Assembly: GCA_942492005.1 (NCBI GenBank) | Contig: CALOED010000303.1 | Location: forward strand, 9,823 to 73,822 | From: an uncultured Saprospiraceae bacterium | GTDB taxonomy: Bacteria; Bacteroidota; Bacteroidia; Chitinophagales; Saprospiraceae | Length of the DNA: 64,000 nt | Direction: 5' to 3' | In this document: positions 1,691-53,016 of the stretch, piece by piece | How the letters are laid out: the number at the start of each line of letters is the position of its first letter | How positions within the stretch are numbered: position 1 is the stretch's first letter | The notes under the pieces: generated by a model | Databases searched by the model: none | The model's input: only the letters and a program-made list of their open reading frames with translations | Told to the model about the DNA's origin: nothing | Position numbers and translations under genes: made by a program

Positions 1691-1867
1691 TTAGGTTCTT
1701 TTTTTTAAATATCAAATAATAGGCTTGGTTTTATCCGATTTTTCTATCCTCGCCTATTTCGTTGGAATAATCGCAAATTTAACCCAACTTTGCAAAAAGA
1801 GAAAAGATAAATTCAAACAACATTGACGAGATTTGTCAAATAATCTTCTTTTTTATAAAAAATACAA

Positions 1868-2548: not shown

Positions 2549-2553
2549 AATAC

Positions 2554-2579
2554 TTGAACCTGTCGGCCGACAGGTTCAA
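2554..2579. terminator. palindromic hairpin between convergent genes
   Basis: 26-nt perfect palindrome TTGAACCTGTCGGCCGACAGGTTCAA, 6 nt after the stop at 2548 and upstream of the stop of the minus-strand gene at 2632. Confidence 0.55.
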
Positions 2580-2631
2580 AACTAAAAATTAACCGCTCCT
2601 TCTTATACAACATAAATATTTGAAAAGGGTA

Positions 2632-3711
2632 TTACATCAAAATACCATTTTTTGCCTCGATGCTTGGTGGCAAATCCGTTTCGCCGAGCATTTCACGCAA
2701 GTCAATTTCTATCACTCGACAGAGCGAAAGCATCGGAATATCATTTGCCATACCTTGAAATGGGTTCTCAGAATAGTCGCCTATTACTTCCATCATCACA
2801 TATACCCAACCTACCAAAGCCGTGATAGGAATAGCAAACCAAAAACCCATTTCGCCCAATTTCATCAGTTCTGGAATCATACTAAACGGCAGAAGCAGCA
2901 AGAAAATGCCTACGAAATAAAAACTCATATTGGCATACTGACGAGGCAGTGGGAATTTTTTGATGCGCTCGCATTTGCCTTGATGCTCATAGAAATGATA
3001 TAAAATTTGCTGCAATTCCATCTGGCGGAAATCATCAATTAAATCATCTTTGCGGAGTTCTTGTAAGTTTCGAGATTGTTCGTTGATGATTTGAGTTGCC
3101 GTATTGACATGATTAATCAATCGGTCGTGTTCCTCGGCAGGTAAGAAATTTTTCAGTTCGGTCTGTGTCACTTCATCAGCTACCAACCCAACGCCAAAAG
3201 ACTCCTGATAACGCCTTGCAAGCCGCCCAACGCCACCTCCTTGATTGATGTGTTCCCATGGCGCACTGACCAACAATTGACTGCGCAAAGCATATAACCA
3301 ACCGATATGACGATAAATTAATCGTTTTTTGATAGTATACATATGCTCATCCGAAGCGTCTTCATCTCTAAATTGATTGGAAATAAAGCTATCCACATAA
3401 CTGCCCCATGCTCGGCTACTATTAATAATCGCACCCCAAATCTTTCGAGCTTCCCACATTCTATCGTAAGCACTGTTGTTCTTAAAACCCACGTAGAACG
3501 CTACTGCTGTACCAATGACGGAAATCGGCAACCACGGAATTGCAAATTGAATAACCTCATACTTATACAAAAGCGCAATAAGCGTAGAGCAAGCCGACAG
3601 CCAAATAACATGGTGTCCTGACCATTTGAGGACTTTGATTAAACTAATACTTTTAGTAATTAACATAGCTTTTTGTTTTGATGTTCTTTTTATTAAAAAT
3701 CGACTCGCCAA
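2632..3711 (-). CDS. bestrophin/YneE family ion channel (paralogue of 800..1690)
   Basis: 359 aa. It has a YDRMWEARKIWG motif and the same C-terminal ...EAKNG(I/V)(L/I)M ending as the 296-aa protein. Confidence 0.75.
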   Translation of the reverse strand: MASRFLIKRTSKQKAMLITKSISLIKVLKWSGHHVIWLSACSTLIALLYKYEVIQFAIPWLPISVIGTAVAFYVGFKNNSAYDRMWEARKIWGAIINSSRAWGSYVDSFISNQFRDEDASDEHMYTIKKRLIYRHIGWLYALRSQLLVSAPWEHINQGGGVGRLARRYQESFGVGLVADEVTQTELKNFLPAEEHDRLINHVNTATQIINEQSRNLQELRKDDLIDDFRQMELQQILYHFYEHQGKCERIKKFPLPRQYANMSFYFVGIFLLLLPFSMIPELMKLGEMGFWFAIPITALVGWVYVMMEVIGDYSENPFQGMANDIPMLSLCRVIEIDLREMLGETDLPPSIEAKNGILM

Positions 3712-3741: not shown

Positions 3742-6075
3742 TTAGTAATCACTACGCCTTGCAAGTGCGTCGAAATAATTAAAAGCGACGTTTTGTTGGT
3801 TGGTAATATTTTGAATGTCAAGAGCGAAAGTATGCGTTCTGAAAGGGCTATTGGGCATTTTATCAGAAAATATTTCCTTCTTCCAATAGAAACGAACATC
3901 TAAGCGAAAGACATCGGGCTGCTGGTCGGTAAAGGCTTGATTTTCAAGATAAAGGGTTCTTCCAGCTTGCTGAGAAGCCGTTAGGTCAATGGGCGTTGTG
4001 CGAAAACCGCCCGCATATACGGCTCTTCCATACATACCAATTTTACGTAAAATAACTCGATTTTTATCATTGATGCGCCGCTTTATCCAATCTTTTCCAA
4101 CAAAAATATTAGCAATCGTATTGCCATTGTATCGAGTATTGCGCCATTCGCCATCGCCGCCTTTATACTTAGATTGATAAAGGGTTAGGTTGGTTGAAAT
4201 ATAAAAATTCTGGTCAAAGTTTTTGCGATAAGAGAGTTCTAGCCCGTAATTCTGTCCTACGCCCTCATTGGCAAGCGTATCTGTAATAAAGCTATTCAAA
4301 TCATTAATTACTGAAAATGAACGGTCAGCCGCATTCGCAATCGGAATATCAAATAAATATTGGTAGTAGCCTTGAATTTGGAAGGCATATTTGCCATAGC
4401 GAGATTCTTTGAGGTATTTCAAATTGAGATGGTGCGAGCGAGTAAAGTCCAAATTTTGGTTGATGCGTTCGCCCAAATTATTGGCACTTAAATACACTTC
4501 TGGAGCTTGCAACTGACTGTGCAAGCCATAAGACAGCGTTAAATCTCCTCGACGACCAGGTAGATTTTTGATGTAAGTCACACGAGGCTCTACGGAGTAC
4601 GAACCATTTTCAGTATAAATCATAGAATGCAGACCAAATCGCAAGTAGTAATTGGAATTTTTGAAAAGCAAATAGCCCAGGCTAGGTTGAATCAACCAGC
4701 CATTTTGTGTGCCGTTTGCTCGAAAATTTGCGGTGCTATCGAAGTTATACAATTGATAATTGAGCTGGCTGGCGTTGAGTTCTGCGCTAAAATTATAGTA
4801 GCGGTACTTGGTGCGAAACGAAAATCGACGATGCTGTAAGCTATCCTGTTGCGTTAAAGTAGCATTGAAATTATCATCCAAACGGTTGCCCTTTCTCACG
4901 GCATTCCATATCGAATAAGCCACCGTCGTTTCAAAATAATGTTGGTTTTTAGAAAACTGATGCGATACGCCCGTGATGTTAGTTGCCGAATAAAAATCAA
5001 TATCAAATCTATCCTTTTGGACTTCCCAATTGGCGGTATCTCGTTGAGTTCTGAATATATTGCTACTCAATCCTGAGATATTGAAAAGGGTAAAGTTGCC
5101 ATATTTTTTAGTTGGAAAAAAGACGCTCAAATTGGCATCTATAAACGAAATTTTTTCACCTCCAAAATCCAAACCAAAGCCATTCGCCAACAGCCCAACG
5201 GTAGAATATCGCACACTTGCATTATAAAAAGAACCTTTCTCTCGATTGATAGCCCCTTTCGAGAGTGCTTCTAGTCCAATCAAGCCTATTTGTATAGAAT
5301 GTTGGTTGCGTTTTGGCATTTCTTTATTGATTCTCATATCCAATATGCCGCCCGTCGCATTACCCAATCCTGTGTTGAATGCGCCATTATAAAATGCCGT
5401 AGATTGAAAAAATTGAGGCTTTATCATATTCACACCGCCGCCCGAAGTGGTGATTCTATCGCTAGATGTACCCGCATTTGGGGTATGATTGGGGTTGGGA
5501 ATTTCGATTCCTTCCAAGTACCATTTCAAGCTATTCGGATTGTTGCCACGCACCGAGATGATATTGGTGCCATCGTCCACTACGTTCACGCCAGCGAGGA
5601 GAGAAGCCGTTCGTCCGGGGTCGTCATATACGGCAGGAGCTTCGTAAATCTCTTTGCTCGTGAGTACTGGCGAAAATTTGGGCGACCAAATTTCTATCGG
5701 CACTCCAATACTTTTATTCAATTCGTCCATGATAATCTTCAAACTAATGACTTTTCCTGCTCCTATCGTTACATTTTGTGTTTTATTTTGAAATCCGACA
5801 TAAGAAATTTGTAGAGTATAAGCCCCTGTTTTTAGTTTTTCTAATATGAAAATACCATTTTCGTCAGTAATTGCACCTGTTTCTAAAATATCCGTATTTG
5901 CTTGCAATACTCGAATATTTGCACCAATCATTGGTTCTCCGTCGGCATCCATTACAAAACCCCTCAATGTGCCGAAGTCTTGTGCTAAGATATGGACATT
6001 GAAAAAAAATAGCAAACCGAACATCAAAACGTTCTGTTTGCTATTTGTTACCCTGTTTTTCATTCGTATATTCAT
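3742..6075 (-). CDS. TonB-dependent receptor with N-terminal CarboxypepD_reg-like domain
   Basis: 777 aa with a signal peptide and a GTLRGFV..DENG..GAYTLQISYVGF carboxypeptidase-regulatory-like fold. The rest is beta-barrel-like and ends in an aromatic residue. Confidence 0.8.
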   Translation of the reverse strand: MNIRMKNRVTNSKQNVLMFGLLFFFNVHILAQDFGTLRGFVMDADGEPMIGANIRVLQANTDILETGAITDENGIFILEKLKTGAYTLQISYVGFQNKTQNVTIGAGKVISLKIIMDELNKSIGVPIEIWSPKFSPVLTSKEIYEAPAVYDDPGRTASLLAGVNVVDDGTNIISVRGNNPNSLKWYLEGIEIPNPNHTPNAGTSSDRITTSGGGVNMIKPQFFQSTAFYNGAFNTGLGNATGGILDMRINKEMPKRNQHSIQIGLIGLEALSKGAINREKGSFYNASVRYSTVGLLANGFGLDFGGEKISFIDANLSVFFPTKKYGNFTLFNISGLSSNIFRTQRDTANWEVQKDRFDIDFYSATNITGVSHQFSKNQHYFETTVAYSIWNAVRKGNRLDDNFNATLTQQDSLQHRRFSFRTKYRYYNFSAELNASQLNYQLYNFDSTANFRANGTQNGWLIQPSLGYLLFKNSNYYLRFGLHSMIYTENGSYSVEPRVTYIKNLPGRRGDLTLSYGLHSQLQAPEVYLSANNLGERINQNLDFTRSHHLNLKYLKESRYGKYAFQIQGYYQYLFDIPIANAADRSFSVINDLNSFITDTLANEGVGQNYGLELSYRKNFDQNFYISTNLTLYQSKYKGGDGEWRNTRYNGNTIANIFVGKDWIKRRINDKNRVILRKIGMYGRAVYAGGFRTTPIDLTASQQAGRTLYLENQAFTDQQPDVFRLDVRFYWKKEIFSDKMPNSPFRTHTFALDIQNITNQQNVAFNYFDALARRSDY

Positions 6076-8368: not shown

Positions 8369-10073
8369 TTAGCCATTCATCGAAATCAAAAACTCATCAT
8401 TATTGCGAGTTCCTTTCATTTGATTTTTCAAAAATCGCATTGCCTCTTCTGGATTCATATCACCTATATGTCGGCGCAATATCCACATACGATTCAGCGT
8501 CTCGCTATCCATGAGTAAGTCCTCACGTCGAGTGCTGGATTTGTTAATATCAATAGCAGGGAAAATCCGTTTATTCGCCAATCCTCGGTCAAGTTGAAGC
8601 TCCATGTTACCTGTACCTTTAAATTCTTCAAAGATAACGCTATCCATTTTAGAACCCGTATCGGTCAGCGCAGTAGCAAGTATTGTAAGAGAACCGCCAT
8701 TCTCGATGTTACGAGCTGCACCAAAGAACTGTTTGGGCTTGTGCAAAGCATTTGCTTCCACACCACCCGACAATACCTTACCACTAGCAGGAGCTACGGT
8801 GTTGTGCGCTCTTGCCAAACGAGTAATCGAATCCAAGAGAATAACTACATCGTGACCACATTCTACTAAGCGTTTCGCCTTTTCTAGTACAATGCTTGAC
8901 ACTCGAACATGACGTTCTGCAGGCTCGTCAAAAGTAGAAGCAACTACTTCTGCTCTTACGCTACGTTGCATATCTGTTACCTCCTCTGGGCGTTCGTCTA
9001 TCAATAATATTATCAAATAACACTCTGGATGATTTTTAGCGATAGCATTGGCAATATCCTTCAAAAGGAAAGTTTTACCCGTTTTAGGCTGTGCCACAAT
9101 CAATCCACGCTGTCCTTTCCCAAGAGGCGAGAACAAATCAATAATTCGAGTAGGATAATGAGTTGGCCCTAAAGGAATATTGAATTTTTCTTGCGGAAAA
9201 AGAGGAGTGAGGTAGTCGAAAGGTACTCTATCTCTAGCTTCTAAAGGCTCACGACCATTGATTAAAGTCACTTTTAGTAGCGCAAAATATTTTTCGCCTT
9301 CTTTTGGAGGACGAATAGCACCCTGCACAGTATCACCTGTTCTTAATCCGAATAATTTGATTTGAGAAGGCGATACATATATATCATCTGGAGAAGTCAA
9401 ATAATTGTAATCCGATGAACGTAAGAAACCATAGCCATCAGGCATCATTTCCAAAATACCCTCTCCTTCGATGATACCATCAAATTCGATATTGAATCGA
9501 GTATTTCGGCCACGTTTTTCTCGGTCTTTATTGTCTCGGTTATCACGATTGTCACGATTATCACGATTGTCCTTGTTACTTTTATTATCACGAGAGCTTT
9601 TTTCCTCTTTTTTGTAACGTTTTTCTTCCGCAGGCGGTGGCGTTTTGACTTCTTCTTTCTTCGCTTTTTCAGCCTTTTCGACCTCTTTCAGCGCAGGAGT
9701 AAGCCATTTCTTTCAAAAACTCTTCTTCTGTAATAATTTCTACCTCTGGCGCAACTTTCTTTTTGCGTCCACGGCTTTTATTTTTTTCCTCCTTCGCTTT
9801 TTCTTCTTCCGCTCTAGCTTCTTCCATTTCAGCTTTAGTACGACGACGACGCTTAGGTTTATTATCTACTTCTTCTTTAGTAGTTGTTTGTATTTCTTCT
9901 TCGTTTTGGTCGGCAGGAGGCGTATTTTTATTGCCTTCGATAGCTTGGTGGTCAAGAATTTTATAAATCAATTCTTGTTTGGAGAGCTTTTTATACTGGG
10001 TTAAGCCAATTCTATCTGCGATGTCTCGCAGTTCTGGCACCAGCATTTCGTTTAATTGCAAAATGTCGTACAT
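8369..10073 (-). pseudogene. rho: transcription termination factor Rho, reading frame interrupted by a 1-nt shift in the N-terminal insertion domain
   Basis: The 9672..10073 frame encodes the Rho N-terminal domain (MYDILQLNEMLVPELRDIADRIGL...). The frame open over 8369..9712 encodes the charged linker, the CSD-like RNA-binding domain and the ATPase ([17 protein letters not shown]). 10073-9454 is not a multiple of 3. The two open frames overlap only at 9672-9712. Confidence 0.85.
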
Positions 10074-10849: not shown

Positions 10850-12127
10850 ATGTTAGAATTAAAAGTAATCAGAACGCAGAAGGAGCGTGTTTTGGAAGGA
10901 TTGAAAGTAAAAAACTTTAAGCAACTCACGCTCGTGGATACCATTATTGAACTGGATGATAAGCGCAAAGCTATCCAACAAGAGCTAGACGAAATTTTAG
11001 CAAAAAACAATAGCGCATCCAAAGAAATAGGGCAACTATTCAGACAAGGCAAAAAAGAAGAAGCAAATGCGCTGAAAAATAGCATTGGTTCATTGAAAGA
11101 AAAGTCTCAAAACCTAAAAGAGGAACAAAACAAGGTATTGAGCGACTTGGACGAAGCCTTGATTCAGTTGCCGAATCTGCCGCATCCATCTGTGCCTGCG
11201 GGCAATTCTGAAGAAGATAACGAAGTATATCAAGCATGGGAAGGCGATTTTCCGAAACTACACGATGGGGCTGAACCTCATTGGGAATTGGCAAAAAAAT
11301 ACCAATTATTCGATTTAGAAATTGGCGCAAAAATCTCTGGCGCAGGTTTTCCATTATATCGAGGGCGTGGCGCAAAACTAGAGCGTGCGTTGATTAATTT
11401 TTTCTTGGACGAAGCCGAAAACGCTGGTTACGAAGAAATTATTCCGCCGCATTTGGTGAACGAAGCTACGGCTTACGGCACGGGGTCTTTGCCCGATAAG
11501 GAAGGGCAGATGTATTATGCCGAAAAAGATGATTTGTATCTTATACCAACTGCCGAAGTGCCGGTGACGAATATTCACAGGGATGAAATATTGGACGAAA
11601 AAGATTTGCCGATTAAATACACCAGTTACACACCTTGTTTCCGAAGAGAAGCGGGGTCTTATGGCGCACACGTCAAAGGCTTGAATCGAGTTCATCAGTT
11701 CAATAAAGTCGAGATTGTACAATTGGCGCACCCCGATAAGTCTTATGAAGTATTGGAAGAAATGCTCAATCACGTCAGAGGAATATTGGAAAAACTGGGC
11801 TTGCCTTACCGTATTTTAAGGCTTTGTGGTGGAGATGTGAGTTTTACTTCTGCGCTTACCTTCGATTTTGAGGTATATTCTGCCGCTCAAGAGCGTTGGT
11901 TAGAGGTCAGTTCGGTATCTAATTTTGAGACCTTTCAAAGCAATAGGATGAAACTTCGATTTCGTTCTAAAGAAAATAAAAAAACGCAACTCGTGCATAC
12001 ATTAAATGGTAGTGCGCTGGCGTTGGCAAGGATTTTTGCATCTATTCTCGAAAATTATCAAACGCCAGAAGGCATCGTAGTGCCAGAAGTATTGCGCCCT
12101 TATCTGAAATTTGAGATAATTGATTAA
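10850..12127 (+). CDS. serS: serine--tRNA ligase
   Basis: 425 aa with an N-terminal coiled-coil arm and a class II core (FRRE, GSALA motifs). Confidence 0.9.
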   Translation: MLELKVIRTQKERVLEGLKVKNFKQLTLVDTIIELDDKRKAIQQELDEILAKNNSASKEIGQLFRQGKKEEANALKNSIGSLKEKSQNLKEEQNKVLSDLDEALIQLPNLPHPSVPAGNSEEDNEVYQAWEGDFPKLHDGAEPHWELAKKYQLFDLEIGAKISGAGFPLYRGRGAKLERALINFFLDEAENAGYEEIIPPHLVNEATAYGTGSLPDKEGQMYYAEKDDLYLIPTAEVPVTNIHRDEILDEKDLPIKYTSYTPCFRREAGSYGAHVKGLNRVHQFNKVEIVQLAHPDKSYEVLEEMLNHVRGILEKLGLPYRILRLCGGDVSFTSALTFDFEVYSAAQERWLEVSSVSNFETFQSNRMKLRFRSKENKKTQLVHTLNGSALALARIFASILENYQTPEGIVVPEVLRPYLKFEIID

Positions 12128-28300: not shown

Positions 28301-29162
28301 AATAGCGTTTTTTTTAAACACATAGGCACATAGAAAATATAAGAGTATTAGCCGTTTTTATTTTTTATAAAAAAATAATTGGCGGTTTAATTCCAATTAT
28401 TTTTTCTCAGAAAAATAAAACTAATAAACATTTTTCTATGTGCCTATGTGTTAAAATAACAAATAGTGTTTTCAAAGAATAGCGTTTTTTTAAACACAAG
28501 GCACATAGAAAATAGAAGAGTATTAGCCGTTTTTATTTTTTATGAAAAAATAAGTGGCGGTTTAATTCCAATTATTTTTTCTCAGAAAAATAAAACTAAT
28601 AAACATTTTTCTATGTGCCTATGTGTTAAAATAACAAATAGTGTTTTCAAAGAATAGCGTTTTTTTAAACACAAGGCACATAGAAAATAGAAGAGTATTA
28701 GCCGTTTTTATTTTTTATGAAAAAATAAGTGGCGGTTTAATTCCAATTATTTTTCCTCAGAAAAATAAAATTAATAAACATTTTTCTATGTGCCTATGTG
28801 TTAAAATAACAAATAGTATTTTCAAAGAATAGCGTTTTTTTTAAACACATAGGCACATAGAAAATATAAGAGTATTAGCCGTTTTTATTTTTTATAAAAA
28901 AATAATTGGCGGTTTAATTCCAATTATTTTTTCTCAGAAAAATAAAACTAATAAACATTTTTCTATGTGCCTATGTGTTAAAATAACAAATAGTGTTTTC
29001 AAAGAATAGCGTTTTTTTAAACACAAGGCACATAGAAAATAGAAGAGTATTAGCCGTTTTTATTTTTTATGAAAAAATAAGTGGCGGTTTAATTCCAATT
29101 ATTTTTCCTCAGAAAAATAAAACTAATAAACATTTTTCTATGTGCCTATGTGTTAAAATAAC
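28301..29162. repeat. 4.9 tandem copies of a 175/177-bp unit, each with a 21-nt inverted repeat
   Basis: Units start at 28301, 28478, 28653, 28828 and 29005. The arms are AACACATAGGCACATAGAAAA / TTTTCTATGTGCCTATGTGTT, separated by 94 nt (e.g. 28317-28337 and 28432-28452). Confidence 0.95.
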
Positions 29163-42578: not shown

Positions 42579-43580
42579 TTACTCATGTTCTTTAATCTGC
42601 ATTTCGAGTTTTCGCATCATAATTTTAGAACCCACAAAAAGCGGTGTCCGTTGATGGATGTCTGTTGGTTTGATTTTCATAATCCGCTGCTTGCCATCCG
42701 AAGCATAACCGCCTGCCTGCTCGGCTAAAAACGCCACAGCCATCGCTTCATACATCAACCTCAATTTGCCTTCGGGCTTTTTACTCGTAGCAGGATACAT
42801 ATAAATACCGCCTTTGAGCAGGTTGCGGTGAAAATCTGCGACCAACGAGCCAATATATCTTGAAATATAGCCTCCAACTCTACAATCACGGATATATTTG
42901 CGAATGTAAGGCGCAACATCTTCAAAAATATAATCATTCATAGAATAGCAAATCCCATCATCGGGCATCGTAATCTCGGGATGAGATAGGAAATATTCGC
43001 CCAAAGAAGGCTCTAGCGTAAATCCATTTACACCAAACCCCGTAGTGTAAACCAACATGGTAGAAGAGCCATATAAAATATAACCCGCAGCCACTTGTTC
43101 TTTTCCCGTTTGTAGAAAATCCACATCCGTAAGCGGTTCGCCAATGGGCGTTTTTCGAGTAAAAATAGAAAAAATAGTACCTACCGAAACATTCACATCT
43201 ATATTAGATGAACCATCCAACGGGTCCATCGCTACGATGTATTTTCCTTTCGGATTATTCAAAATGATAGGTTTTTCATTCTCTTCTGAAAGCACAGCGC
43301 AAGTTTCGCCGCCATTCTCAAAAGCTCGAATAAACCGAATATTGGCCACTACATCGAGTTTTTGTTGCTGCTCGCCTTGCACGTTTTCTTGGCCTGCCCG
43401 ACCTTCTATATCCACCAAACCTGCCCGATTAATCGCACGATTGATGATTTTAGAAGCTAAAGCAATATCTCTCAAAAGTTGCGAGAGTTCGCCCGTAGCG
43501 TGCGGAAATTCTTCTTGTCTTCTAGCAATAAAGCGGTCGAGGGCAGTCCCAACGGGTGCGGAAAGTTTTTCAATAGACAT
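42579..43580 (-). CDS. fbp: class 1 fructose-1,6-bisphosphatase
   Basis: 333 aa with [21 protein letters not shown] and GGIYMYP motifs. Confidence 0.9.
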
Positions 43581-43884
43581 GGTATAAAAGTTATCAGTAC
43601 GTGGATTGAGAAATTGTTAAAATATTTGTAATAATTAAATCATTGAAAACAAAAAATCAATCATATTACTATTTTTAATAAGGTCTTAAATCTACTTAAA
43701 TAATTAATCAAATTCAAAACTGTTTTAGAAATAGAGATGGCTACTAAGTAACTCTCGTTATGCAATGGGAACGCTGATGCCGCTGATTTGCTAAAGCAAA
43801 TTCACAGATAAGCGCAGATTAGATAAGTTGGGGAGGTTAAAATCGAGGAAGCGACAAAATGAGATGCGCCCGGTAAGTTTATAA

Positions 43885-44061
43885 TCAGCTTCATTTAGTA
43901 TGGTTTCACTCAATATGGTGCAATACTTACTAGGACATCAATCTATTAAAACCACACCAATATATTTACATATCTCCGATAAAATGAGAAAAAATATTCA
44001 AAGCCTGCTTGATAGTTTAAATATTAAATTTATCTTTAACAACGTATCGCATTTTCAATGA
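43885..44061 (+). pseudogene. C-terminal remnant of a tyrosine recombinase/integrase
   Basis: My translation is ...SFSMVSLNMVQYLLGHQSIKTTPIYLHISDKMRKNIQSLLDSL.... The LLGH-x-S-x-x-TT-x-IY-x-H block holds the catalytic Tyr. The rest of the enzyme is missing and upstream frames are full of stops. Confidence 0.55.
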
Positions 44062-44321
44062 AATGCAAAGTGCGGAACCCCCTGGCGGGATATAGGTCAG
44101 TTTTGGTTTATGTCTCGACGTTCGACACCACCATTCCGCCAGAGGTCGAAACCATAAAATCCAAAATCTGCTATGCGCTAGAATTTTGAATTTATATTTG
44201 GCAGTATCGAACAATTCTAACATCGTCCATGCTTCGGCGAAAGCCTCGCACGGCGTTGTTGAACGTCCATTATGCACAATTAAAAAGAGACAACATGTTA
44301 AAGATTAAAAAAGACTGTACA

Positions 44322-45209
44322 ATGAAAAAATCAATTTTGTTTTTTGCTATTCTATTAATAACCCTGAGTAGTTGTAGAGAAGATGATAAAAATAATTCAG
44401 AGAGTTGCTATTCAAATACTAATGCACAGACCATAGTTCATGACGGTATCAATAGAGAGTATGTATTGTACATACCTAACTCATATGATGAGACATCTAC
44501 TGTTCCACTAATGCTGAATTTTCATGGTTTTGGTGGTAGTGCAAGTGATTACATGCAAGAAGCAGATATGCGCTCATTGGCAGAAGCTGATACTTTTATT
44601 TTAGTCTATCCTCAGGGTAGCTGTTTGGACGGTTCATCTCATTGGAATGCTTGTCTAAATGGTGGAGATAATAAAAGTGATGCTGATGATTTTGGTTTTG
44701 TTGAATCAATGATTAATGAGATTTCATCGCAATACAATATAGATATGGAAAGAATTTATGCTGCTGGATACTCAAACGGTGGTATGATGGCATATGGACT
44801 TGCGAACTATAAGAGTGATTTAATTGCTGCGGTAGCATCTGTTTCGGGAGTAATGTTAGATTGTACTGGACCTACAACTCATCCAATGCCGGTAGTGCAT
44901 CTTCACGGAACCTCTGATGGCGTTCTACCATATAATGGAGGTAATGGCTGGAACTCTGCACAAAGAACAATAGACCATTGGATTAATTTCAATAACACGA
45001 CTACAAATCCAACTGTAAGCAGCGACAATAGTGGAGGAATGACAATTGAACATTATGTATATGACCAAGGTGATAGTTTAGTGTCTGTGGAACATTACAA
45101 ATATATTGGAGGAGACCACATTTGGTTTAATTCAACTTTTCAAAGTCAAAGTACATCTGAATTAGTTTGGAATTTTGTATCACGATATGACATTAATGGA
45201 TTGAGATAA
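44322..45209 (+). CDS. secreted alpha/beta-hydrolase, PHB-depolymerase/LpqC-type esterase (lipoprotein)
   Basis: The start is taken at MKKSILFFAILLITLSSC (a lipobox) rather than 44229. It has an HGFGGSA oxyanion region and the nucleophile elbow GYSNGG. Confidence 0.75.
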   Translation: MKKSILFFAILLITLSSCREDDKNNSESCYSNTNAQTIVHDGINREYVLYIPNSYDETSTVPLMLNFHGFGGSASDYMQEADMRSLAEADTFILVYPQGSCLDGSSHWNACLNGGDNKSDADDFGFVESMINEISSQYNIDMERIYAAGYSNGGMMAYGLANYKSDLIAAVASVSGVMLDCTGPTTHPMPVVHLHGTSDGVLPYNGGNGWNSAQRTIDHWINFNNTTTNPTVSSDNSGGMTIEHYVYDQGDSLVSVEHYKYIGGDHIWFNSTFQSQSTSELVWNFVSRYDINGLR

Positions 45210-45228
45210 ATAAAAAAAAAAAAAAAGT

Positions 45229-45295
45229 GCATAACAATGTGTATGTGTTCATAGCCAGCAAAAGCTGGCAACGCCACATACACCAAACGTTGGCA
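45229..45295 (+). other. attC-like imperfect palindrome (67 bp)
   Basis: GCATAAC-AAT-GTGTATGTG-[..GCCAGC AAAA GCTGGC..]-CACATACAC-CAAAC-GTTGGCA. It has no T-run and lies 20 nt after the esterase stop, preceded by an A15 tract. Confidence 0.5.
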
Positions 45296-45554
45296 GCAAG
45301 CAAAAAATAATATGAAACATCCCAAATTAGAGTAGATAAGACCTTATTAATAACCTTTATTTACAAAAAGAATTATAGACTAAAAATTAGCTTTTGATTT
45401 TAGACGAGGCAGCTTCGAAATAAATAACTTTGACTATTTGTCTCGAAACTAACAAGATATAAAATTGAAAAATATTTTTGCAGTAATATTAATTTTTGTG
45501 AATAAAGACTAATAGAAAAAACAATATCTTCTAAAGATTTAAACAAATGAAATA

Positions 45555-46214
45555 ATGAAACTCAAAACACCTACAAAACAATTTATCGAAGAAATATTAT
45601 CAGAACATGATAAAGATGGAGGAAATATCAACAATGTTCCACTAAAAAAACTATTTGATGAATTTATTAGTCAAACAGATTTAGGAGAAGTTCGTCTTAA
45701 AGTTGCAGCTTTAAACAAATTATATTCAACTTCAATACAAAATATTGAACCTGTAGTTGAAAAAATAGTTGAAGTCTCTGAAAACTTTAATCCTCATAAT
45801 GTGGATGAATATCTCAAATTTATTGATGATATAGCTACCACAAATAAATGGATAACGAAAAAAGGCAAAGAAAAGCAAATAACTAATTTATCTTTTGCAT
45901 CTAAATATGTTCATTTTATGAGCAACTACAAAACACCAATATACGATAGTTATATCTGGATTCTCTTAAAAGGATATTTAGGACAAATGAAGAAAGAGAA
46001 ATTTACAAAAACGAAGCCCGAAAACTATATGGATTTTTATCGTAAATTTGATATGTTTCAAGAAGAGTTCAAATTAAAGTCTTTATCTATTTATGACATA
46101 GATAAATTTCTTTGGAAATATTGTAGAAAAATGCTGGCAGAAATAGAATCTAAAAACAATGTTGATTTGAACAAAGCAAAATCAATACTTTGGGAGCAAA
46201 TAAAAGCTCAGTAA
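45555..46214 (+). CDS. hypothetical protein (possible HhH/OGG-fold-like motif SFASKYVHF...PIYDS, weak)
   Basis: 219-aa ORF in the AT-rich island. The family guess is from memory of OGG-fold proteins seen in accessory regions and is not verified. Confidence 0.5.
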   Translation: MKLKTPTKQFIEEILSEHDKDGGNINNVPLKKLFDEFISQTDLGEVRLKVAALNKLYSTSIQNIEPVVEKIVEVSENFNPHNVDEYLKFIDDIATTNKWITKKGKEKQITNLSFASKYVHFMSNYKTPIYDSYIWILLKGYLGQMKKEKFTKTKPENYMDFYRKFDMFQEEFKLKSLSIYDIDKFLWKYCRKMLAEIESKNNVDLNKAKSILWEQIKAQ

Positions 46215-46278
46215 ATTATGAAAACTACATGGGAAAGTAATATTAAGTATGAAATAAAGAGCCTGCTGCCAACAAAAG

Positions 46279-46544
46279 CAGTTACTATGTAAAAACCAAA
46301 TAAAAGAGCCAAAAACATTAAAAAAAGTAAAATATATAACTTAAAAAGTGAATGATATAAAAATCCCATTACGTAGAGCGTTGGGTTCTATCGTTGAAAG
46401 TAAAAAAGCTAGCAGTTGATACGGTTTTTTTACGCTTTTAAAAACGGCTGCTTTGGGAAGTGATGGGCCGCAAAAAAAAGCAAGTATTAACAAAGATTTC
46501 TAACGTCTTTTACACAGAAAAGACTAGGATCCCCTATATGGTGG
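46279..46544 (+). repeat. 266-bp direct repeat, copy A
   Basis: Near-identical by eye (a handful of mismatches) to 48235..48500. It contains GTTGGGT at 46379-46385 and the start of a small ORF, MGRKKKQVLTKISNVFYTEKTRI. Confidence 0.9.
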
Positions 46545-46659
46545 CGATTTCTATTCGATACCAAGTTTTTGGGAAGGTTTAGTGGAACATGAATTATTTG
46601 ACCCACATCACCCTAATTGGAATGGAAGACCTTTTTACTAAAAGGAGATAATTTCGGGC

Positions 46660-47001
46660 ATGATGGATTTAATTGCGGCTTATATACGCTATACTCATGC
46701 AATTGGTGAAAACAATTTTGCAAACCATATTATGAAGTATCTTGGTATTTTAATACGAGTTACTCCATTTGCGACTGACGGAATAGGAAATGATAAACTT
46801 AATGGCTATATCGCAAGAAGGACAAATAAGTATATAGCAATGCTTTACGATGGAGTTCTTGAACACTATCTTGATGTATTCGACCTTAAAGACATAGCAA
46901 TTAAATCTTCAAAAAGAGGACATTCGATAGCAGAAACAGATGTCATTGCAATTCGAGAAAATATTAGATTAAGAAAACATCTATTTGAAGCAATGACTTA
47001 A
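46660..47001 (+). CDS. hypothetical protein
   Basis: 113-aa ORF. No motif recognised. Confidence 0.45.
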   Translation: MMDLIAAYIRYTHAIGENNFANHIMKYLGILIRVTPFATDGIGNDKLNGYIARRTNKYIAMLYDGVLEHYLDVFDLKDIAIKSSKRGHSIAETDVIAIRENIRLRKHLFEAMT

Positions 47002-47071
47002 TTCCAAATATCGTGATTAAGTTCTGTATATACGTTAGGTTTTCCCTTTTGAAAAATGTAAATTTGTTTTA

Positions 47072-47617
47072 GTGAAAAGACTTGATTTAGACATATTAAA
47101 AACAGGTATTCCAATTATTTCTAAGAAAATTGGAGCATTTTTGGCAGAAGCAGCAGCAATATGTCTGCATATGAACGGTTATAAATCGGGTGTAAAACTG
47201 AGAGTTGAGGGTGAAGTCAAAGATACTTTGATAATTGAATGGAACGATAAAATTACTGATGATGTTTTAAGTAGTTGGAATGATACACGAGAAGCAACAG
47301 AATTTGGAGCAACTGCGTTAGCTCTTTTGTTGTTGTTAGAATACACAAATTACACCTATTTCATAAGAGCTTTTCAAGGTACAGGAATAGACTATTGGTT
47401 AGGAAAAGGAAAATATACAGGAGAAGTATTACCAACAGAAGATAGAAAAGGACGATTAGAAATATCAGGTATTCTGAAACAAACTAAGGGAAATACTATT
47501 AATATGCGGATTAACCAAAAGAAAAAGCAGTCTAAACAAACGGATGATACAGAATTACCTGTTTATATTGTTGTGGTAGAATTTAGTCAACCTAAAGCTA
47601 AAATCATTAAGAAATGA
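47072..47617 (+). CDS. hypothetical protein, weak PD-(D/E)xK (Mrr/DUF4365-like) pattern
   Basis: 181 aa with a GTG start. The pattern E77 (TEFGATALALL), D107 (GTGIDYWL), E130 (RLEISGILK) is reminiscent of a restriction-endonuclease fold but lacks the canonical ExK lysine. The stop overlaps the next start (ATGA). Confidence 0.5.
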   Translation: MKRLDLDILKTGIPIISKKIGAFLAEAAAICLHMNGYKSGVKLRVEGEVKDTLIIEWNDKITDDVLSSWNDTREATEFGATALALLLLLEYTNYTYFIRAFQGTGIDYWLGKGKYTGEVLPTEDRKGRLEISGILKQTKGNTINMRINQKKKQSKQTDDTELPVYIVVVEFSQPKAKIIKK

Positions 47618-48177
47618 ATGTAATTAATATCATACATAATAAAGCAATTGAATTTGCGGATGAAGCAATCATAGCTAAACATAAAGGTAATCCTTCTACC
47701 GTTAAAGAATTGTATCTAAAAGCGTTTCAATTGGAAAAGGAAGCTGCTCTTTATGCACCTTTAGACAATGAAGATACAACACCAAGACATATTTTAATCC
47801 GAAGTGCGGCTTCCTTAGCTATGTTAAGTGAGCAGTTTGAAGAAGCAGAAAAACTGATAACTTTAGGTTTATCAAGTTCACCACCAAAATTTATTGAAAA
47901 AGAATTATTAACCTTAGCGAAAGAGGTAAAAAACCGAAAGGCAAATTACCTTAAAACCAATTTTATTCAAGTAGTTGGTTTGTTCACTTATGCAAACGCC
48001 AATGAAAACGAAATTAAAATTCAAGATAATAATCTTCCTTTCCTACATACTTTAATTGCACCTGCTAAACAAATTAAAATGCTTGTCAAAGAATATTTCT
48101 TAGAAAAAGTAAATGTAAAAGCGAGTGTTTCTTCTAATGGAATTTTACTGATGAAAGAAATGACAAAAATTCCTTAA
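47614..48177 (+). CDS. hypothetical protein, helical-repeat N-terminal half plus beta-rich C-terminal half
   Basis: 187 aa. It overlaps the previous gene by 4 nt, which suggests translational coupling. Confidence 0.5.
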   Translation: MNVINIIHNKAIEFADEAIIAKHKGNPSTVKELYLKAFQLEKEAALYAPLDNEDTTPRHILIRSAASLAMLSEQFEEAEKLITLGLSSSPPKFIEKELLTLAKEVKNRKANYLKTNFIQVVGLFTYANANENEIKIQDNNLPFLHTLIAPAKQIKMLVKEYFLEKVNVKASVSSNGILLMKEMTKIP

Positions 48178-48234
48178 CCGAAAAACCGTTTCAGATACAC
48201 AGATAAAATAATAAAAAAGCAACAGCCACAAAAA

Positions 48235-48500
48235 CAGTTACTATGTAATAACCAAATAAAAGAGCAAAAAACATTAAAAAAAGTAAAATGTATAACTTAA
48301 AAAGTGAATGATATAAAAATCCCATTACTTAGAGCGTTGGGTTCTATCGTTGAAAGTAAAAAAGCTAGAGGTTGATAGGGTTTTTTTACGCTTTTAAAAA
48401 CGGCTGCTTTGGGAAGTGATGGGCCGCAAAAAAAAGCAAGTATTAACAAAGATTTCTAACGTCTTTTACACAGAAAAGACTAGGATTTCCCTATATGGTG
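48235..48500 (+). repeat. 266-bp direct repeat, copy B
   Basis: Matches 46279..46544. GTTGGGT lies at 48336-48342. The small ORF with the same first 23-24 codons continues into different sequence. Confidence 0.9.
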
Positions 48501-48515
48501 CGATAATTACAAATC

Positions 48516-48602
48516 GTTCAACTCGCCTCCTTACGCCATCCGTGAAAATCGTGCGGTGGTCGGAATTGGTGGCGATGGCGTAGGGAGGCTTAGATGTTGG
48601 GT
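48516..48602 (+). other. attC-like imperfect palindrome (87 bp)
   Basis: GTTCAAC (fits RYYYAAC), then GCCTCCTTACGCCATC (48525-48540), a 33-nt loop, GATGGCGTAGGGAGGC (48574-48589, 15/16 complementary), TTAGAT, and GTTGGGT (fits GTTRRRY). There is no T-run. Confidence 0.55.
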
Positions 48603-48635
48603 GCTATTAGAAAAAATAAACAGAAAAACTAAGGA

Positions 48636-49460
48636 ATGTACAATCCTACTCATATATATTATATGAACACTATTCAATGTAATCAAAAATGCACTAAGTG
48701 TTCACATTGGAAATATAAAGACAACGCAGAAAGACTTCCAACAAGTAAAGTTGTCAAAGGAATTTTATCTATTCCAAATGCACAAGAATTATGTATTGTT
48801 GGAGGTGAACCTTTACTTTTCAAAAATGAGATTTATGAAATTTTAAAAGGTATATCGGAAACTCAAATAAGAACCGTAATAATTACAAACGGAGTTCCAA
48901 TGGACAAAGTATTCATAAATGAGGTGTCAAAATATAATGTCCATATTGTTGTTTCGATAGATACAATGGATAGAGACTTTTGGAAGTTTGTACGAGGTAC
49001 AAATTCTTATGATAAGGTTTTTCAAAATCTTGAATATGCGATAAATAATCTTGATAGACCTCAAATTAGTGTTCAGTCAGTTTTATCAAAGGAAACTGAA
49101 CCACATATGAAAGCTGTTGGAGAGTACGCTCAAGAGAAAGGTATTTACCATTCAATCCAAGATTATATTACTGAAGGCTTTGAAGGGAGTTGGACACCAA
49201 AGGAGCATAAAAAAGCATTTGTTCCAATTTTGGAGCAGCAATGTTATGCAGCAGGTAGAAATTTGTCTATTGTTCAGAATGGCGATGTTTATACTTGTTT
49301 TCAGCAAAATTGGATAAAAGACTGTAAAAAACCATTAGGCAATTTAAATTCAATGGAAATGACAGATATTCTCTCTTCTGATTATGCGGAAGTAGTAAGT
49401 GCAAAAATGAGAATATGTAATCTTCCTTGTAAAGTTTTAAAATGTAACACAAAGAACTGA
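48636..49460 (+). CDS. radical SAM protein with C-terminal twitch/SPASM-like Cys domain
   Basis: 274 aa with CNQKCTKC (C15, C19, C22) and GGEPLL. The C-terminal CYAAGRNLSIVQNGDVYTC fits C-x12-G-x4-C, followed by ICNLPCKVLKC. Confidence 0.8.
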   Translation: MYNPTHIYYMNTIQCNQKCTKCSHWKYKDNAERLPTSKVVKGILSIPNAQELCIVGGEPLLFKNEIYEILKGISETQIRTVIITNGVPMDKVFINEVSKYNVHIVVSIDTMDRDFWKFVRGTNSYDKVFQNLEYAINNLDRPQISVQSVLSKETEPHMKAVGEYAQEKGIYHSIQDYITEGFEGSWTPKEHKKAFVPILEQQCYAAGRNLSIVQNGDVYTCFQQNWIKDCKKPLGNLNSMEMTDILSSDYAEVVSAKMRICNLPCKVLKCNTKN

Positions 49461-50386
49461 TGAAATTTGAAGAAGTCATAGTCGAGTTAAGTTATAATTG
49501 TAATCTAAGCTGTACGATGTGCGGATTTGGTAAACACGTCAATCCATTCCACAAAAGTAAATTTTTGCCTTTTGAAAGCTATAAAGAAATTTTAGAGCAG
49601 ATAGGGGGAATTTCTAATACAATTCGATTGAATGGAAGAGGGGAAAGTACAATTCACCCAGATTTCAAGGAGATTTTAGATTACACGAAAAAGCGATTTC
49701 CGCAACTAAATATAAATTTATTTTCAAATATGTCATTTGGGAATGATAAAATATTGCAGAGTTTGATTAAAAACGATGTTCAGTTATTTATCTCAATGGA
49801 TAGTGCTAACAAACAGAATTTAGTTGCTATAAGACGAGGAGCTAAATTTGAGGATATCGTCAATAATATTAAAAAACTTAAATCTCTTTCAAAACGTCCA
49901 TTTATAATATTCACCATTCAAGAAGAGAATTTATTTGAAATTGCTGAGATTGCTAAATTTGCATTTGAAAGTAATTGTCACATATTATTCAATACGATAA
50001 GACGTGACAAGGGAATTGAGGTATTTGTAAAACTTGTTGAAGATAATAAGGGAAAAATCAAACAACAGTTTAATCAAGTAGCAGAATTGTATAACGATAG
50101 TAATTTACAATATCATCTCCCAGACCAATTGGCAGGAATTACTCTAAATTCAGAATATGCCAAGCAAACTCACGGAAGTATGAAAAATTGCCCAATACTG
50201 GACAGAGAACTTTGCATATTGTTTGATGGTACAGTTACTCCTTGTAATATGTTCAATCCATATATATATGGTAACATAAAAGAGCAAGGTTTGAAAGAGA
50301 TTTGGGAAGGAAGTAAAAGAAAAGATTTTTTAACATCACACAAGTATCACTACTACTGTAATAATTGTGCAAACCTTGGGATGTAA
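49460..50386 (+). CDS. radical SAM/SPASM domain protein
   Basis: 308 aa with CNLSCTMC (C14, C18, C21). The C-terminus CPILDRELCILFDGTVTPCN...YGNI...CNNC is SPASM-like. The start overlaps the previous stop (TGATG). Confidence 0.8.
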   Translation: MKFEEVIVELSYNCNLSCTMCGFGKHVNPFHKSKFLPFESYKEILEQIGGISNTIRLNGRGESTIHPDFKEILDYTKKRFPQLNINLFSNMSFGNDKILQSLIKNDVQLFISMDSANKQNLVAIRRGAKFEDIVNNIKKLKSLSKRPFIIFTIQEENLFEIAEIAKFAFESNCHILFNTIRRDKGIEVFVKLVEDNKGKIKQQFNQVAELYNDSNLQYHLPDQLAGITLNSEYAKQTHGSMKNCPILDRELCILFDGTVTPCNMFNPYIYGNIKEQGLKEIWEGSKRKDFLTSHKYHYYCNNCANLGM

Positions 50387-51342
50387 TGAGTTCAATATCC
50401 AACTTGCCTTATGGTAAAATACTTGATTATTGGTATGAAAACCTAAAAGGACATAAACACAGAAATAAATTTTTACTTACTAAGTTCATCGAAGCATTTA
50501 TATTCAAGTCGAGTTCGAAAAATACAAATTTAGAATATGAATATATTCCGTTTCCAATAGGTAAAAAGCATAACTTACCAATAAAACCCAAAATAGCTTT
50601 GGTAATACCCGTTTATGCTAAATCAAATAAAGATATTCAAAACCTAAAAAATTTGTTTGGGTCAATTGAAAACCTTGAATACAAACCAGATAATGTTGTA
50701 ATAATTGATGATAAATCACCTTTGAATTATAGTGTTCCGAAACAATATTTGAAGCTGAAGAATGAAATAAATTGTGGTCCAGCAAAAGCAAGAAATAAAG
50801 GAATCGAAACAGCATTAAACACTGAAGTAGACATTATCGCATTTACTGATTCCGATTGTCTTCTTGATAAAGATTGGATAAAGCAAATCATTTTTCATTT
50901 TCAACAATATCAAACTTGCGGTATAGTTTCAGGTAATACCATTTCAAAAGACAATCATTGGTTTGGGACGTATCACAATATAAACGGAACATTGAATGGA
51001 AGGAAATTTAAAAACTCAAATAGGTTGCTTTATGGAACTACTGCAAATCTCGCAATTACAGCGGAGGTGGGAAAAAGAATAAGATTTAATGAAAAATTCC
51101 CTAATGCAGCAGGTGAAGATATTGAATTTTGTTTTAGAGCAAACAAAGAAGGCTTTGAGATAAACCATAGCCGAGAAATGGTTATTTTTCATAATTATGG
51201 ATATGCGAAAAGAATTTTTGATAGTCTGAGAATATTCAGAAATCAATTTAGAAAATATGGAAAGGGAGAACAAATACTCCTTGAACAAATTCCGGAATAT
51301 TATGCTTATTTCAATGAAACAGAAGAAATTAAAGCAGAATAA
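50386..51342 (+). CDS. family 2 glycosyltransferase
   Basis: The start is taken at MSSISNLPYG (a TAATG overlap with the previous stop), in frame with the track ORF 50365..51342. It has VIPVY...IIDDKS...DSD...GEDIEF motifs typical of GT2. Confidence 0.75.
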   Translation: MSSISNLPYGKILDYWYENLKGHKHRNKFLLTKFIEAFIFKSSSKNTNLEYEYIPFPIGKKHNLPIKPKIALVIPVYAKSNKDIQNLKNLFGSIENLEYKPDNVVIIDDKSPLNYSVPKQYLKLKNEINCGPAKARNKGIETALNTEVDIIAFTDSDCLLDKDWIKQIIFHFQQYQTCGIVSGNTISKDNHWFGTYHNINGTLNGRKFKNSNRLLYGTTANLAITAEVGKRIRFNEKFPNAAGEDIEFCFRANKEGFEINHSREMVIFHNYGYAKRIFDSLRIFRNQFRKYGKGEQILLEQIPEYYAYFNETEEIKAE

Positions 51343-51865
51343 AAAATATGCCACCCAATAAACAAGGCTGCTAGCGGCTGGCAAGCCTGTCGGCAGACAG
51401 GTTTGAACGACATCGCCCCCCGACCGAAGCGACCGACCCAAAATCCAACTGAAAATCGAGAAAAAACCTCTACTATGGGGAATGGCTGCAAGACAATGCC
51501 TCATAGGAATAAATATTTAAGAGTCAATGAATTAGAAAATTCATAAAAACACACCGCATTGGACTAAACATCAAACTTACTTTTGAAGCACGGTATTAGC
51601 AGCTAAAAACATATCAATTTATTCGTAGAATAGGAATAGTGCCATTAAAAAGTTATCTTTAGCTTTAGTTATTTATCCGCTAACATTTTACTATTCTGGT
51701 TTTATCAGCGTTTACCAAAACACTTCTACAACCAACCTTTGACTATCAATACAATAGCTACCAGATTAATGCCTGATAACTAATTAGTCATCATTTCTCA
51801 GGATTTCATCCAGATGTTTGTTTATTTCATTAATGGCAAATCTTCTTAATAAAAAAAAGAACACT

Positions 51866-53016
51866 ATGGGGTTATCAAAAATCGGGGTTATTGGAACTTC
51901 AAAGAAAGAAGACGAAAGGCGTGTTCCTATTCATCCAGAACATTTAAAAAGGCTTCCAGAACACATTCGCAAAAAGCTCATTTTCGAAAAAGGATATGGC
52001 ACACCCTTCAACGTGGAAGATGAAGAAATAGTGGAGCAAACTGGGGGCATGGCCACAAGGTCAGAGATATTGTCAGACCTTGGGTCGGCTATCATCGCTA
52101 AACCCATCTTAGCAGATTTAGAAGAATTGAAAGAGGGCGGAATTCTTTGGGGCTATCCCCATTGCGCGCAGCAAATGCAAATCACCCAAACCGCAATTGA
52201 TAGAAAGCTAACCTTAATTGCTTTTGAAGATATGTTTGTGTGGAGCCCAAATGGACGAATTGGTAGACATACCTTTTATAAGAACAATGAAATGGCAGGC
52301 TATAGTGCAGTCATCCATGCCTTGCAACTCAAAGGAATTGACGGACATTATGGCAACCAAAGAAAGGCGATTATTTTTAGTTTCGGTGCAGTGAGCAGAG
52401 GAGCTATTTATGCCTTAAAAGCTCATGGATTTAGAGATATCACCATCTGCATTCAAAGACCCGACCATGAAGTGAGAGAAGAAGTATTAGATGTAAACTA
52501 TACGCGCATTGAAAAAGGAGAAAGCCAATGAGCCTCGACTACTAAAGTGGTGGAGCATGACGGAACGAGAACGACCTCTTATTAGATTTGATAAGCGAAT
52601 CAGAAATCATTATTAATGGCACTTTTCAAGATCCCGAAGACCCTATCAATTTTGTAAATGAGGATGAAAAAGCCAGCCTCAAGCCTGGCACATTGATTAT
52701 TGATGTGAGCTGTGATGAAGGCATGGGGTTTTATTTTGCTAAGCCTACTACTTTTAAAAATCCTATAATATCTGTGGATAAGATTGATTACTACGCAGTT
52801 GATCATACACCTAGTTATTTTTGGGAAAGTGCTTCAAGGTCTATTTCCGCTGCTATGATTGTGCATTTACCTTCTGTGCTAGGCGGCCCCTCAGCTTGGG
52901 AGCAAAACGCAACCATCAAAAATGCCATCAACATAGATAAAGGAGTAGTGGTGAAAGATGCCATTCTTAAATTTCAAAACCGCCAAGCGAATTATCCGCA
53001 TAACGTAATGAATTGA
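51866..53016 (+). pseudogene. AlaDH/PNT-fold dehydrogenase, N5-(carboxyethyl)ornithine synthase-like; at least two lesions
   Basis: The N-terminal ORF (MGLSKIGVIGTSKKEDERRVPIHPEH...) ends at an in-frame TGA at 52529-52531. The same frame continues ASTTKVVEHDGTRTTSY to a stop at 52583-52585. The C-terminal part (IIDVSCDEGMGFYFAKPTTF) is in another frame, open from 52561. Confidence 0.65.

Follow-up and report, generated by a model that had tools for sequence, protein, structure and literature searches.

Integrons have been studied mostly in Proteobacteria. Arrays of gene cassettes that stand apart from an integrase gene are known as CALIN, clusters of attC sites lacking an integron integrase, and are defined by at least two attC sites found within 4 kb by an attC model; they are common, and mostly have no intI pseudogenes nearby (PMC4889954). 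Integrons have also been reported in Bacteroidota (PMC8618304). Here we analyze a stretch of 64,000 nucleotides (the window) from an uncultured Saprospiraceae bacterium of the phylum Bacteroidota (assembly GCA_942492005.1, contig CALOED010000303.1, positions 9,823 to 73,822 of the forward strand), in which an AT-rich island of ~8.2 kb (window positions 43600-51820) is probably a short, partly decayed, CALIN-like array of integron-type cassettes with attC sites of a Bacteroidota type, interrupted by an unrelated mobile module of two genes. Since both integrons in Bacteroidota and CALIN have already been described, the locus would belong to a known kind of element. With CALIN it shares co-oriented putative cassettes, imperfect palindromes of attC type, non-resistance cargo, the lack of a functional intI nearby, and a distance between its sites of 3.2 kb, under the 4-kb limit. 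It differs in having only two well-formed sites, recognized by our own geometry scan (class 1 surrogate models were negative), two candidate cassette ends that lack a palindrome, and a non-cassette module in the middle of the array.

The evidence begins with two imperfect palindromes whose ends agree with the attC core, as noticed in a preliminary description of this DNA that was made from its sequence. Site 1 (45229-45295, + strand, 67 nt) reads GCATAAC-AAT-GTGTATGTG ... CACATACAC-CAAAC-GTTGGCA, and site 2 (48516-48602, + strand, 87 nt) reads GTTCAAC-TC-GCCTCCTTACGCCATC-(33 nt)-GATGGCGTAGGGAGGC-TTAGAT-GTTGGGT. Both proved to be real hairpins, with folding z-scores of about -3.3 and -3.45, respectively, on either strand, and both are GC-richer (0.46 and 0.56) than the island around them. 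Each is single-copy within the window, neither is listed by a terminator scan, and neither is followed by a T run. For the geometry scan, AAC...GTT pairs 45-260 nt apart were scored by the length of the L stem plus the agreement with RYYYAAC/GTTRRRY. Site 2 scored 19.0 (R-box consensus 8/8, L stem of 15-16 bp, spacers of 2 and 6 nt), above the maxima of 12-17 obtained in 30 Markov shuffles of the window and above every site of the control array described below, while site 1 scored 12.5 (R-box consensus 5/8, L stem of 9-10 bp, spacers of 3 and 5 nt).

As in characterized integrons, cassettes of this kind would be excised as circles and re-inserted by an integron integrase acting on a folded attC strand, with strand exchange between the G and the TT of the R' box, so that the first six bases of a cassette would be the reverse complement of its terminal R'' box. 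Two such pairs, both pointed out in the preliminary description, are found in the window. The R' box GTTGGCA of site 1 (45289-45295, + strand) has its exact reverse complement in the R''-type box TGCCAAC (46267-46273, + strand), located 53 nt past the stop codon of the next gene, which encodes a 219-aa protein of family PF27257; the R' box GTTGGGT of site 2 (48596-48602, + strand) is matched over TTGGGT, from 48597, by the ACCCAA of the R''-type box ACCCAAT (51353-51359, + strand), 11 nt past the stop codon of a glycosyltransferase gene. The left context of the first R''-type box, AAAGAGCCTGC, is similar to the AAAAGCCAGC-R'' context in the control array, and that of the second is AAAAATATGCC. 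When the search is anchored on the palindromes and limited to 6-mers within 100 nt past the stop codon of the next module, the probability of such a match by chance is 0.016-0.065 for TGCCAA and 0.017-0.034 for ACCCAA, with a joint probability of ~0.0003-0.002. Together, the palindromes and the complementary boxes support integron-type cassette hallmarks at two candidate junctions, 45289/90 and 48596/7. From 46273 to 48516 the signature fails. Nested R'/R'' pairs also occur, for example GTTGAAC at 44258 with GTTCAAC of site 2; since cassettes cannot be inserted in a nested way, these were attributed to chance.

On this basis the array would comprise at least three cassettes: one with an esterase gene, closed by site 1; a second with the PF27257 gene, running from G|TTGGCA (45289/90) to the R'' box at 46267; and a third with an operon of two radical S-adenosylmethionine (SAM) genes and a glycosyltransferase gene, from G|TTGGGT (48596/7) to the R''-type box at 51353. 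In the second and the last cassettes, the right half of the attC site would have been lost, or would never have been present. For the start of the first cassette there are two candidates that give a third pair, TTATGC/GCATAA. GTTATGC at 43757-43763 (+ strand), an exact reverse complement of the site 1 R'' box GCATAAC, may mark the left edge of the array; the chance of finding it within 600 nt, from its frequency in the window, is ~4.6%, which makes it weak evidence. The alternative, ATTATGC at 44269-44275 (+ strand), is 47 nt upstream of where the esterase gene probably starts and matches TTATGC at 6/6 positions, with A in place of G as the preceding base.

A control array from the same phylum shows what intact sites look like. 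In a metagenome-assembled genome of a Flavobacteriaceae bacterium (GCA_041392145.1, contig JAWKMQ010000005.1, 5192-25854, overlapping our loci L119 and L120 and here called L120), a homologue with 48% identity to the 219-aa PF27257 protein sits as a cassette among at least 14 co-oriented gene modules, each followed by a palindrome. The geometry scan ranked 14 sites of 131-218 nt at the top, of the form R''(nnnnAAC)-AAY-GGCTAT ... ATAGCC-nnGACC-GTTnnnn, that is, R'', 3 nt and stem on the left, and stem, 6 nt and R' on the right, and the chain is unbroken, each of its 13 links joining an R' 7-mer to an R'' 7-mer in the following site that is its exact reverse complement. Besides PF27257, the cassettes carry BanI-type and MmeI-type restriction-modification genes, ParDE and a UDG-family protein among others, and no integrase was found within 10 kb on either side of the PF27257 gene. 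The window shares with L120 the left spacer of 2-3 nt and the right spacer of 5-6 nt, the L boxes GTGTAT/ATACAC, the leader GCAAGC..AAAAA-ATG, the PF27257 gene as candidate cassette and the R'/R'' signature; the difference is that L120 has 14 longer sites in a perfect chain, and the window two sites of 67 and 87 nt in an interrupted chain. The likeness extends to single elements: the arms of site 1 (AATGTGTAT ... ATACACCAAAC-GTT) are similar to those of the L120 site at 11400-11530 (AACGTGTAT ... ATACACAAAACC-GTT), and the leader after site 1 (GCAAGCAAAAAA..ATG; GCAAGCAAAAAATAATATG) is similar to the leaders of L120 cassettes (GCAAGCTGAAAAAATG), the PF27257 cassette among them. In the window (45296-45554), the leader GCAAGCAAAAAATAATATG after the R' box opens an ORF (open reading frame) of just seven codons, and the PF27257 gene begins 240 nt further on, which suggests that extra AT-rich DNA was inserted between leader and gene relative to the L120 cassette.

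Comparison with two further loci bears on site 2 and its downstream junction. Locus L111 carries a palindrome of the same family (3387-3447), GTTCAAC-TG-GCGTACTTATGCCGTC ... GACGGCATAGGTACGC-CTGAGA-GTTATGA, in which the R'' box GTTCAAC, the spacer lengths and the 16-bp stem are the same as in site 2, four stem pairs have changed in a compensatory manner, none is broken and a T.G pair is kept. An Asp/Glu racemase gene begins after G|TTATGA in L111 and is followed by AAAAAAGCCAGG-TCATAAT (4221), paralleling the G|TTGGGT ... ACCCAAT arrangement of the window. L114 is a marine contig encoding a radical-SAM protein with 95% identity to that of the window. Its identity to the window is 88% across the 300 nt that begin with the GTT at 48596, and 20% before this GTT, where L114 has another palindrome of the same geometry (AGCTAAC-ATG-TGACATG ... 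CATGTCA-TTGGAC-GTTGGCG) and the end of another ORF. This comparison of relatives for a breakpoint at the R' core covers one junction, that at 48596. The operon of two radical-SAM genes and a glycosyltransferase gene also stays together in L113 (76%) and L114 (95%), where its surroundings are different.

The stretch in which the signature fails contains a different kind of element. Two direct repeat copies, of 272 nt (46272-46543, + strand) and 273 nt (48228-48500, + strand), are identical at 263 of ~272 positions and occur only twice in the window, and a scan of metagenomes for the 273-nt repeat gave zero matches. Between them lies a module of ~1.7 kb (46544-48227, + strand), here called module M, with a 113-aa ORF, a 181-aa gene, a 187-aa gene and its own promoter box TAAATTTG, of the Bacteroidetes -7 type, just before the start codon of the 181/187 pair. 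Homologues of the pair with 70-92% identity are found in many Bacteroidota metagenomes, and with ~40% identity in other phyla; the two genes are always paired, at unrelated loci: after an aconitase gene (L081), after uvrB (L087), after scpB (L100), after the gene of a thiamine pyrophosphate-dependent enzyme (L102), beside GmrSD (L112), beside the IS91-like element of L111, where the 181-aa homologue is the second closest with 87% identity, and among HNH, Kinase-PolyVal, ATPase, RhuM and EcoRI genes (L095-L099). The L081 pair stands between the copies of a 131-nt duplication of 99% identity (9793-9923 and 11098-11228), which takes in the final 52 nt of the aconitase gene together with its terminator; a repeat of 31-50 nt (4321-4351 and 5519-5549) brackets the pair in L100, and no duplication flanks it in L087 and L102. 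Long, locus-specific direct duplications thus flank the pair in three of six contexts (L081, L100 and the window), and in both L081 and the window the right junction is placed two codons ahead of where the 187-aa gene usually stops.

Because similar local duplications surround the pair in L081 and L100, the window repeat is best read as local sequence that was duplicated when module M arrived, and not as a pair of attC sites. Module M, with its promoter, would have been inserted separately from the cassettes, by a mechanism other than attC recombination. A reading of the repeat as two similar attC sites was ruled out, as its center is A-rich and unpaired, it extends 160 nt beyond the GTTGGGT box, and its ends do not fall at GTT cores. 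The preliminary description had seen a 266-bp repeat and derived cassette boundaries from it; the repeat is real, if slightly longer, and the boundaries give way to a duplication around an inserted module. A more far-reaching idea, speculative and in our estimate quite unlikely, is that the 181/187 module is a new kind of small mobile unit which inserts into or beside cassette ends and the 3' ends of housekeeping genes, makes long local duplications of variable length (273, 131 and ~31-50 nt) without a transposase or attC, and has the palindrome-less R''-AAT-AAA ends of the window and L111 as its scars or targets. The 181-aa protein is predicted with a mean local confidence (pLDDT) of 94.6, and its best matches in the Protein Data Bank (PDB) are weak (E of at least 2.5e-3, TM-scores of 0.3-0.4) and comprise tRNA-splicing endonuclease, the SPARDA nuclease domain, MGME1 and Hjc. 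With E77, D107, E130 and K150 conserved, we infer from the model a putative PD-(D/E)xK-type nuclease; searches of the protein against Pfam, NCBIfam, PADLOC and PHROGs gave no match.

Three of the contigs with the pair (L095, L098 and L099, metagenome contigs from the Joint Genome Institute) are strain-level variants of a defense-island-like array with HNH, Kinase-PolyVal, 181/187, ATPase_2, RhuM, EcoRI and XisH/XisI modules; between one module and the next stands a conserved hairpin, perfect over 48 nt and bearing A and T tracts (AAAAGCAACCGTCATTCCGCAAC-TCAA-TGTGGAATGACGGTTGTTTTT). These hairpin arrays were ruled out as attC arrays, as the R'/R'' chain is absent from them.

Several observations weigh against a cassette array in the window. 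Covariance models, a check suggested in the preliminary description, gave a mixed outcome. Models trained on 12 attC sites of six class 1 plasmid arrays, with whole sites (R1) or with the R''-L'' and L'-R' arms (R2), recovered their training sites and gave 37 and 32 bits, respectively, to a gcuF site kept out of the training, and with filters off neither had a match in the window with an E-value below 5. This negative carries little weight because R2, again with filters off, detected 0 of the 14 L120 sites, and R1 and R2 were discarded as evidence on the window since they are blind to these verified sites. A third model (R3), trained on the arms of the 14 L120 sites and one L114 site, did have its best match of the whole window at site 1 (45232-45292, 12 bits), at an E-value of just 1.2. 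The scan score of site 1 is by itself not significant, with ~3.4 such sites expected per shuffled strand, and the well-formed sites number only two. Complementarity of 7-mers between neighboring intergenic regions, if not anchored on the palindromes, is at chance level (probability of at least one exact pair, 0.8). The R'' box GTTCAAC of site 2 lacks a matching cassette start nearby, the best being GTTGAAA at 5/6, and the box at 51353 finishes in AAT instead of AAC. Where attC sites would be expected after the PF27257 gene (46262-46392) and the glycosyltransferase gene (51345-51425), a left end can be recognized, but neither a palindrome nor, within the island, a partner arm is present; in keeping with this, folding of the candidate sites, likewise suggested beforehand, returned hairpins for sites 1 and 2 and none for these two regions. 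The segments 46267-46386 and 51345-51425 were dropped as attC sites, having neither fold nor partner arm. Among the cassette boundaries proposed in the preliminary description, those near 45290 and 48597 are supported, with a palindrome and R'/R'' boxes, and those near 46380, 48337 and 51401 are not, for want of both palindrome and partner arm. In L113, moreover, the operon adjoins a pseudouridine synthase gene and no attC is found.

The recombinase evidence also counts against the array being an integron in the strict sense. The window holds no intI, and a tyrosine recombinase remnant at 43885-44061 (+ strand), which the preliminary description had placed correctly and regarded as a decayed recombinase beside an integron-type array, is a C-terminal fragment matching the last 27 profile positions of PF00589 with 21 bits and leaving ~45 informative residues. 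Its NCBIfam scores are 30.5 bits for XerA, 27 for IntI and 26 for XerD, no further recombinase sequence was found upstream in any other frame, and a homologue search with the 58-aa remnant gave zero candidates. Over the final 41 residues of ~380-aa SAM_4 + Phage_integrase proteins that end in RSPLDDL, like IntI1, the remnant shows 56-66% identity; aligned with IntI1, these proteins lack the IntI-specific additional domain, and they score 180-217 bits against TIGR02249, below its cut-off of 265, so that a decayed integron integrase is not supported. The window thus differs from a complete integron in holding a recombinase fragment of ~45 residues and no adjacent intI with the IntI-specific domain. 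The remnant would lie inside the first cassette if that begins at GTTATGC (43757), and just before it if it begins at ATTATGC (44269).

The island could instead be a generic horizontally acquired region or insertion hot spot, pieced together by integrative elements, homologous or illegitimate recombination or other unconnected events, in which the hairpins are transcription-related or REP-like (repetitive extragenic palindromic) and their AAC/GTT flanks and the 6-mer complementarity are coincidental. We regard this as unlikely, even though hairpins with stems of at least 9 bp are frequent in the window (52 clusters in 64 kb), chance suffices for the unanchored 7-mer pairs, the 181/187 module clearly moves without attC, the arrays in L095, L098 and L099 use perfect terminator-like hairpins without an R'/R'' chain, and no attC model returned a significant E-value. 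Like REP elements and intrinsic terminators, the two palindromes are GC-rich hairpins that directly follow genes in AT-rich DNA. They differ in having no T run, no entry in the terminator scan and no further copies in the window, in their conserved R boxes, and in the homology breakpoint at the 3' edge of the hairpin, which in L114 falls exactly at the GTT. The compensatory covariation alongside an invariant R'' box in L111, the joint probability of the anchored signature, and the resemblance of arms and leaders to verified attC arms and cassette leaders also speak for cassettes.

Two further explanations concern how the island came about or what state it is in. An array that is still active, with its integrase encoded elsewhere in the genome and with the palindrome-less ends (R'' in AAT, then AAA) acting as functional variant sites, would have precedent: for half of the CALIN examined, the genome encodes IntI at another place (PMC4889954). 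An end of the type AAAAAGCC..-6mer-T-AAA occurs in two genomes, at 51353 in the window and at 4221 in L111, and the different neighboring cassette in L114 implies recent exchange. Nevertheless, the variant ends have no predicted structure and the first R' candidate at 44269 is ATT rather than GTT, so we consider an active array very improbable. Assembly by an IS91-like rolling-circle element, or by another tyrosine-recombinase element that left the remnant at 43885-44061 and carried adjacent genes along, seems to us hardly credible. This idea draws on L111, where an IS91-family transposase (188.9 bits, cut-off 125) and an accessory tyrosine recombinase stand directly upstream of the homologous palindrome, and on the relatives of the remnant, which are likewise of the broad SAM_4 + Phage_integrase group and lack the IntI domain. 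Similarity to the IS91 transposase is nil across the window, though, the remnant is just 31% identical to the L111 recombinase, and neither the R'/R'' signature nor the GTT breakpoint would be explained. In L111 itself, the IS91-family transposase gene and the accessory tyrosine recombinase gene upstream of it occupy 1230-3157, directly before the attC-like site and the racemase cassette.

With class 1 attC sites (aadA, dfrA, blaVIM and others; L104-L109), the sites of the window share the layout R''(RYYYAAC)-L''...L'-R'(GTTRRRY) and a crossover that would fall at G|TT. Class 1 sites differ in having spacers of 5/6 nt and a bulged base in L'', and the R1 and R2 models derived from them detect neither the window nor the L120 sites. 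The Bacteroidota attC sites of the window and L120 thus show a shifted spacer geometry and, as class 1-trained models miss them, surveys that use such models may undercount cassette arrays in Bacteroidota.

The cassette array proposed here is set in an island with a GC content of 0.321, compared with 0.401 and 0.395 in the flanks, which bears out the AT-richness described earlier; the count of 18 G+C within 60 nt from the start of the ORF at 49460 was likewise reproduced, as were the other coordinates and counts given in that description. Also as described earlier, eight ORFs, all on the + strand, lie between fbp (42579-43580, - strand), the left neighbor of the island, and a split ceo/alanine-dehydrogenase-like gene on its right (ORFs 51818-52531, 237 aa, and 52588-53016, 142 aa), whose interrupted frame would fit a pseudogene bordering the island on that side. 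The first candidate cassette gene (44322-45209, + strand) encodes a lipoprotein-type esterase of the polyhydroxybutyrate (PHB)-depolymerase family, matching NCBIfam NF050058 with 167.6 bits (cut-off 150) and Pfam Esterase_PHB; its ORF is listed from 44229, and the likelier start is MKKSILFF at 44322. The second (45555-46214, + strand) encodes the 219-aa protein of Pfam family PF27257 (HI_0787_N), for which AlphaFold2 gave a pLDDT of 91.8, but a fold search of the PDB returned no significant match. Module M contributes the doubtful 113-aa ORF (46660-47001, + strand), whose product is absent from the protein collection searched, and the 181-aa (47072-47617, + strand) and 187-aa (47614-48177, + strand) genes, which overlap by 4 nt. 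The operon of the third candidate cassette consists of two radical SAM/SPASM genes (48636-49460 and 49460-50386, both + strand) and, as its last gene, a family-2 glycosyltransferase gene (50365-51342, + strand). Scans of the window for Rfam families and tRNAs gave zero matches.

The preliminary description had presented the unknown modules as candidates for new functions, citing small phage-defense cassettes reported from Vibrio chromosomal integrons. In PADLOC 2.0 the sole matches are weak ones of both radical-SAM proteins to pVip (63 and 38 bits), through the N-terminal radical-SAM core, and the other six proteins have none, so that no known defense family was found beyond these. The cargo moves between genomes and is uncharacterized, comprising the PF27257 protein, the putative nuclease pair, which elsewhere often stands beside restriction or defense genes, and the operon of two radical-SAM genes and a glycosyltransferase gene; while the matches obtained here do not imply a defense role, these genes are reasonable candidates for functional screening. 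Alignment of the locus with relatives, another suggested check, was uninformative when made through fbp: over 185,579 species genomes, the best fbp products are 66-68% identical (Cesiribacter, Pontibacter and Fulvivirga), with no shared synteny.

Two minor features of the window were seen along the way. Between fbp and the recombinase remnant, a short ORF on the - strand (43740-43913) ends in ...SNLRLSVNLL and may be akin to pseudo-ORFs that arise from a repeat common in Bacteroidota genomes. Lastly, although it has no ORFs between its units, an intergenic tandem array without an Rfam match at 28301-29162, with 4.9 copies of a 175-nt unit that match at 96% and each contain a near-perfect palindrome of ~143 nt (TTTAAACACATAGGCACATAGAAAA ... 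TTTTCTATGTGCCTATGTGTTAAAA), tops the attC-geometry scan on both strands.

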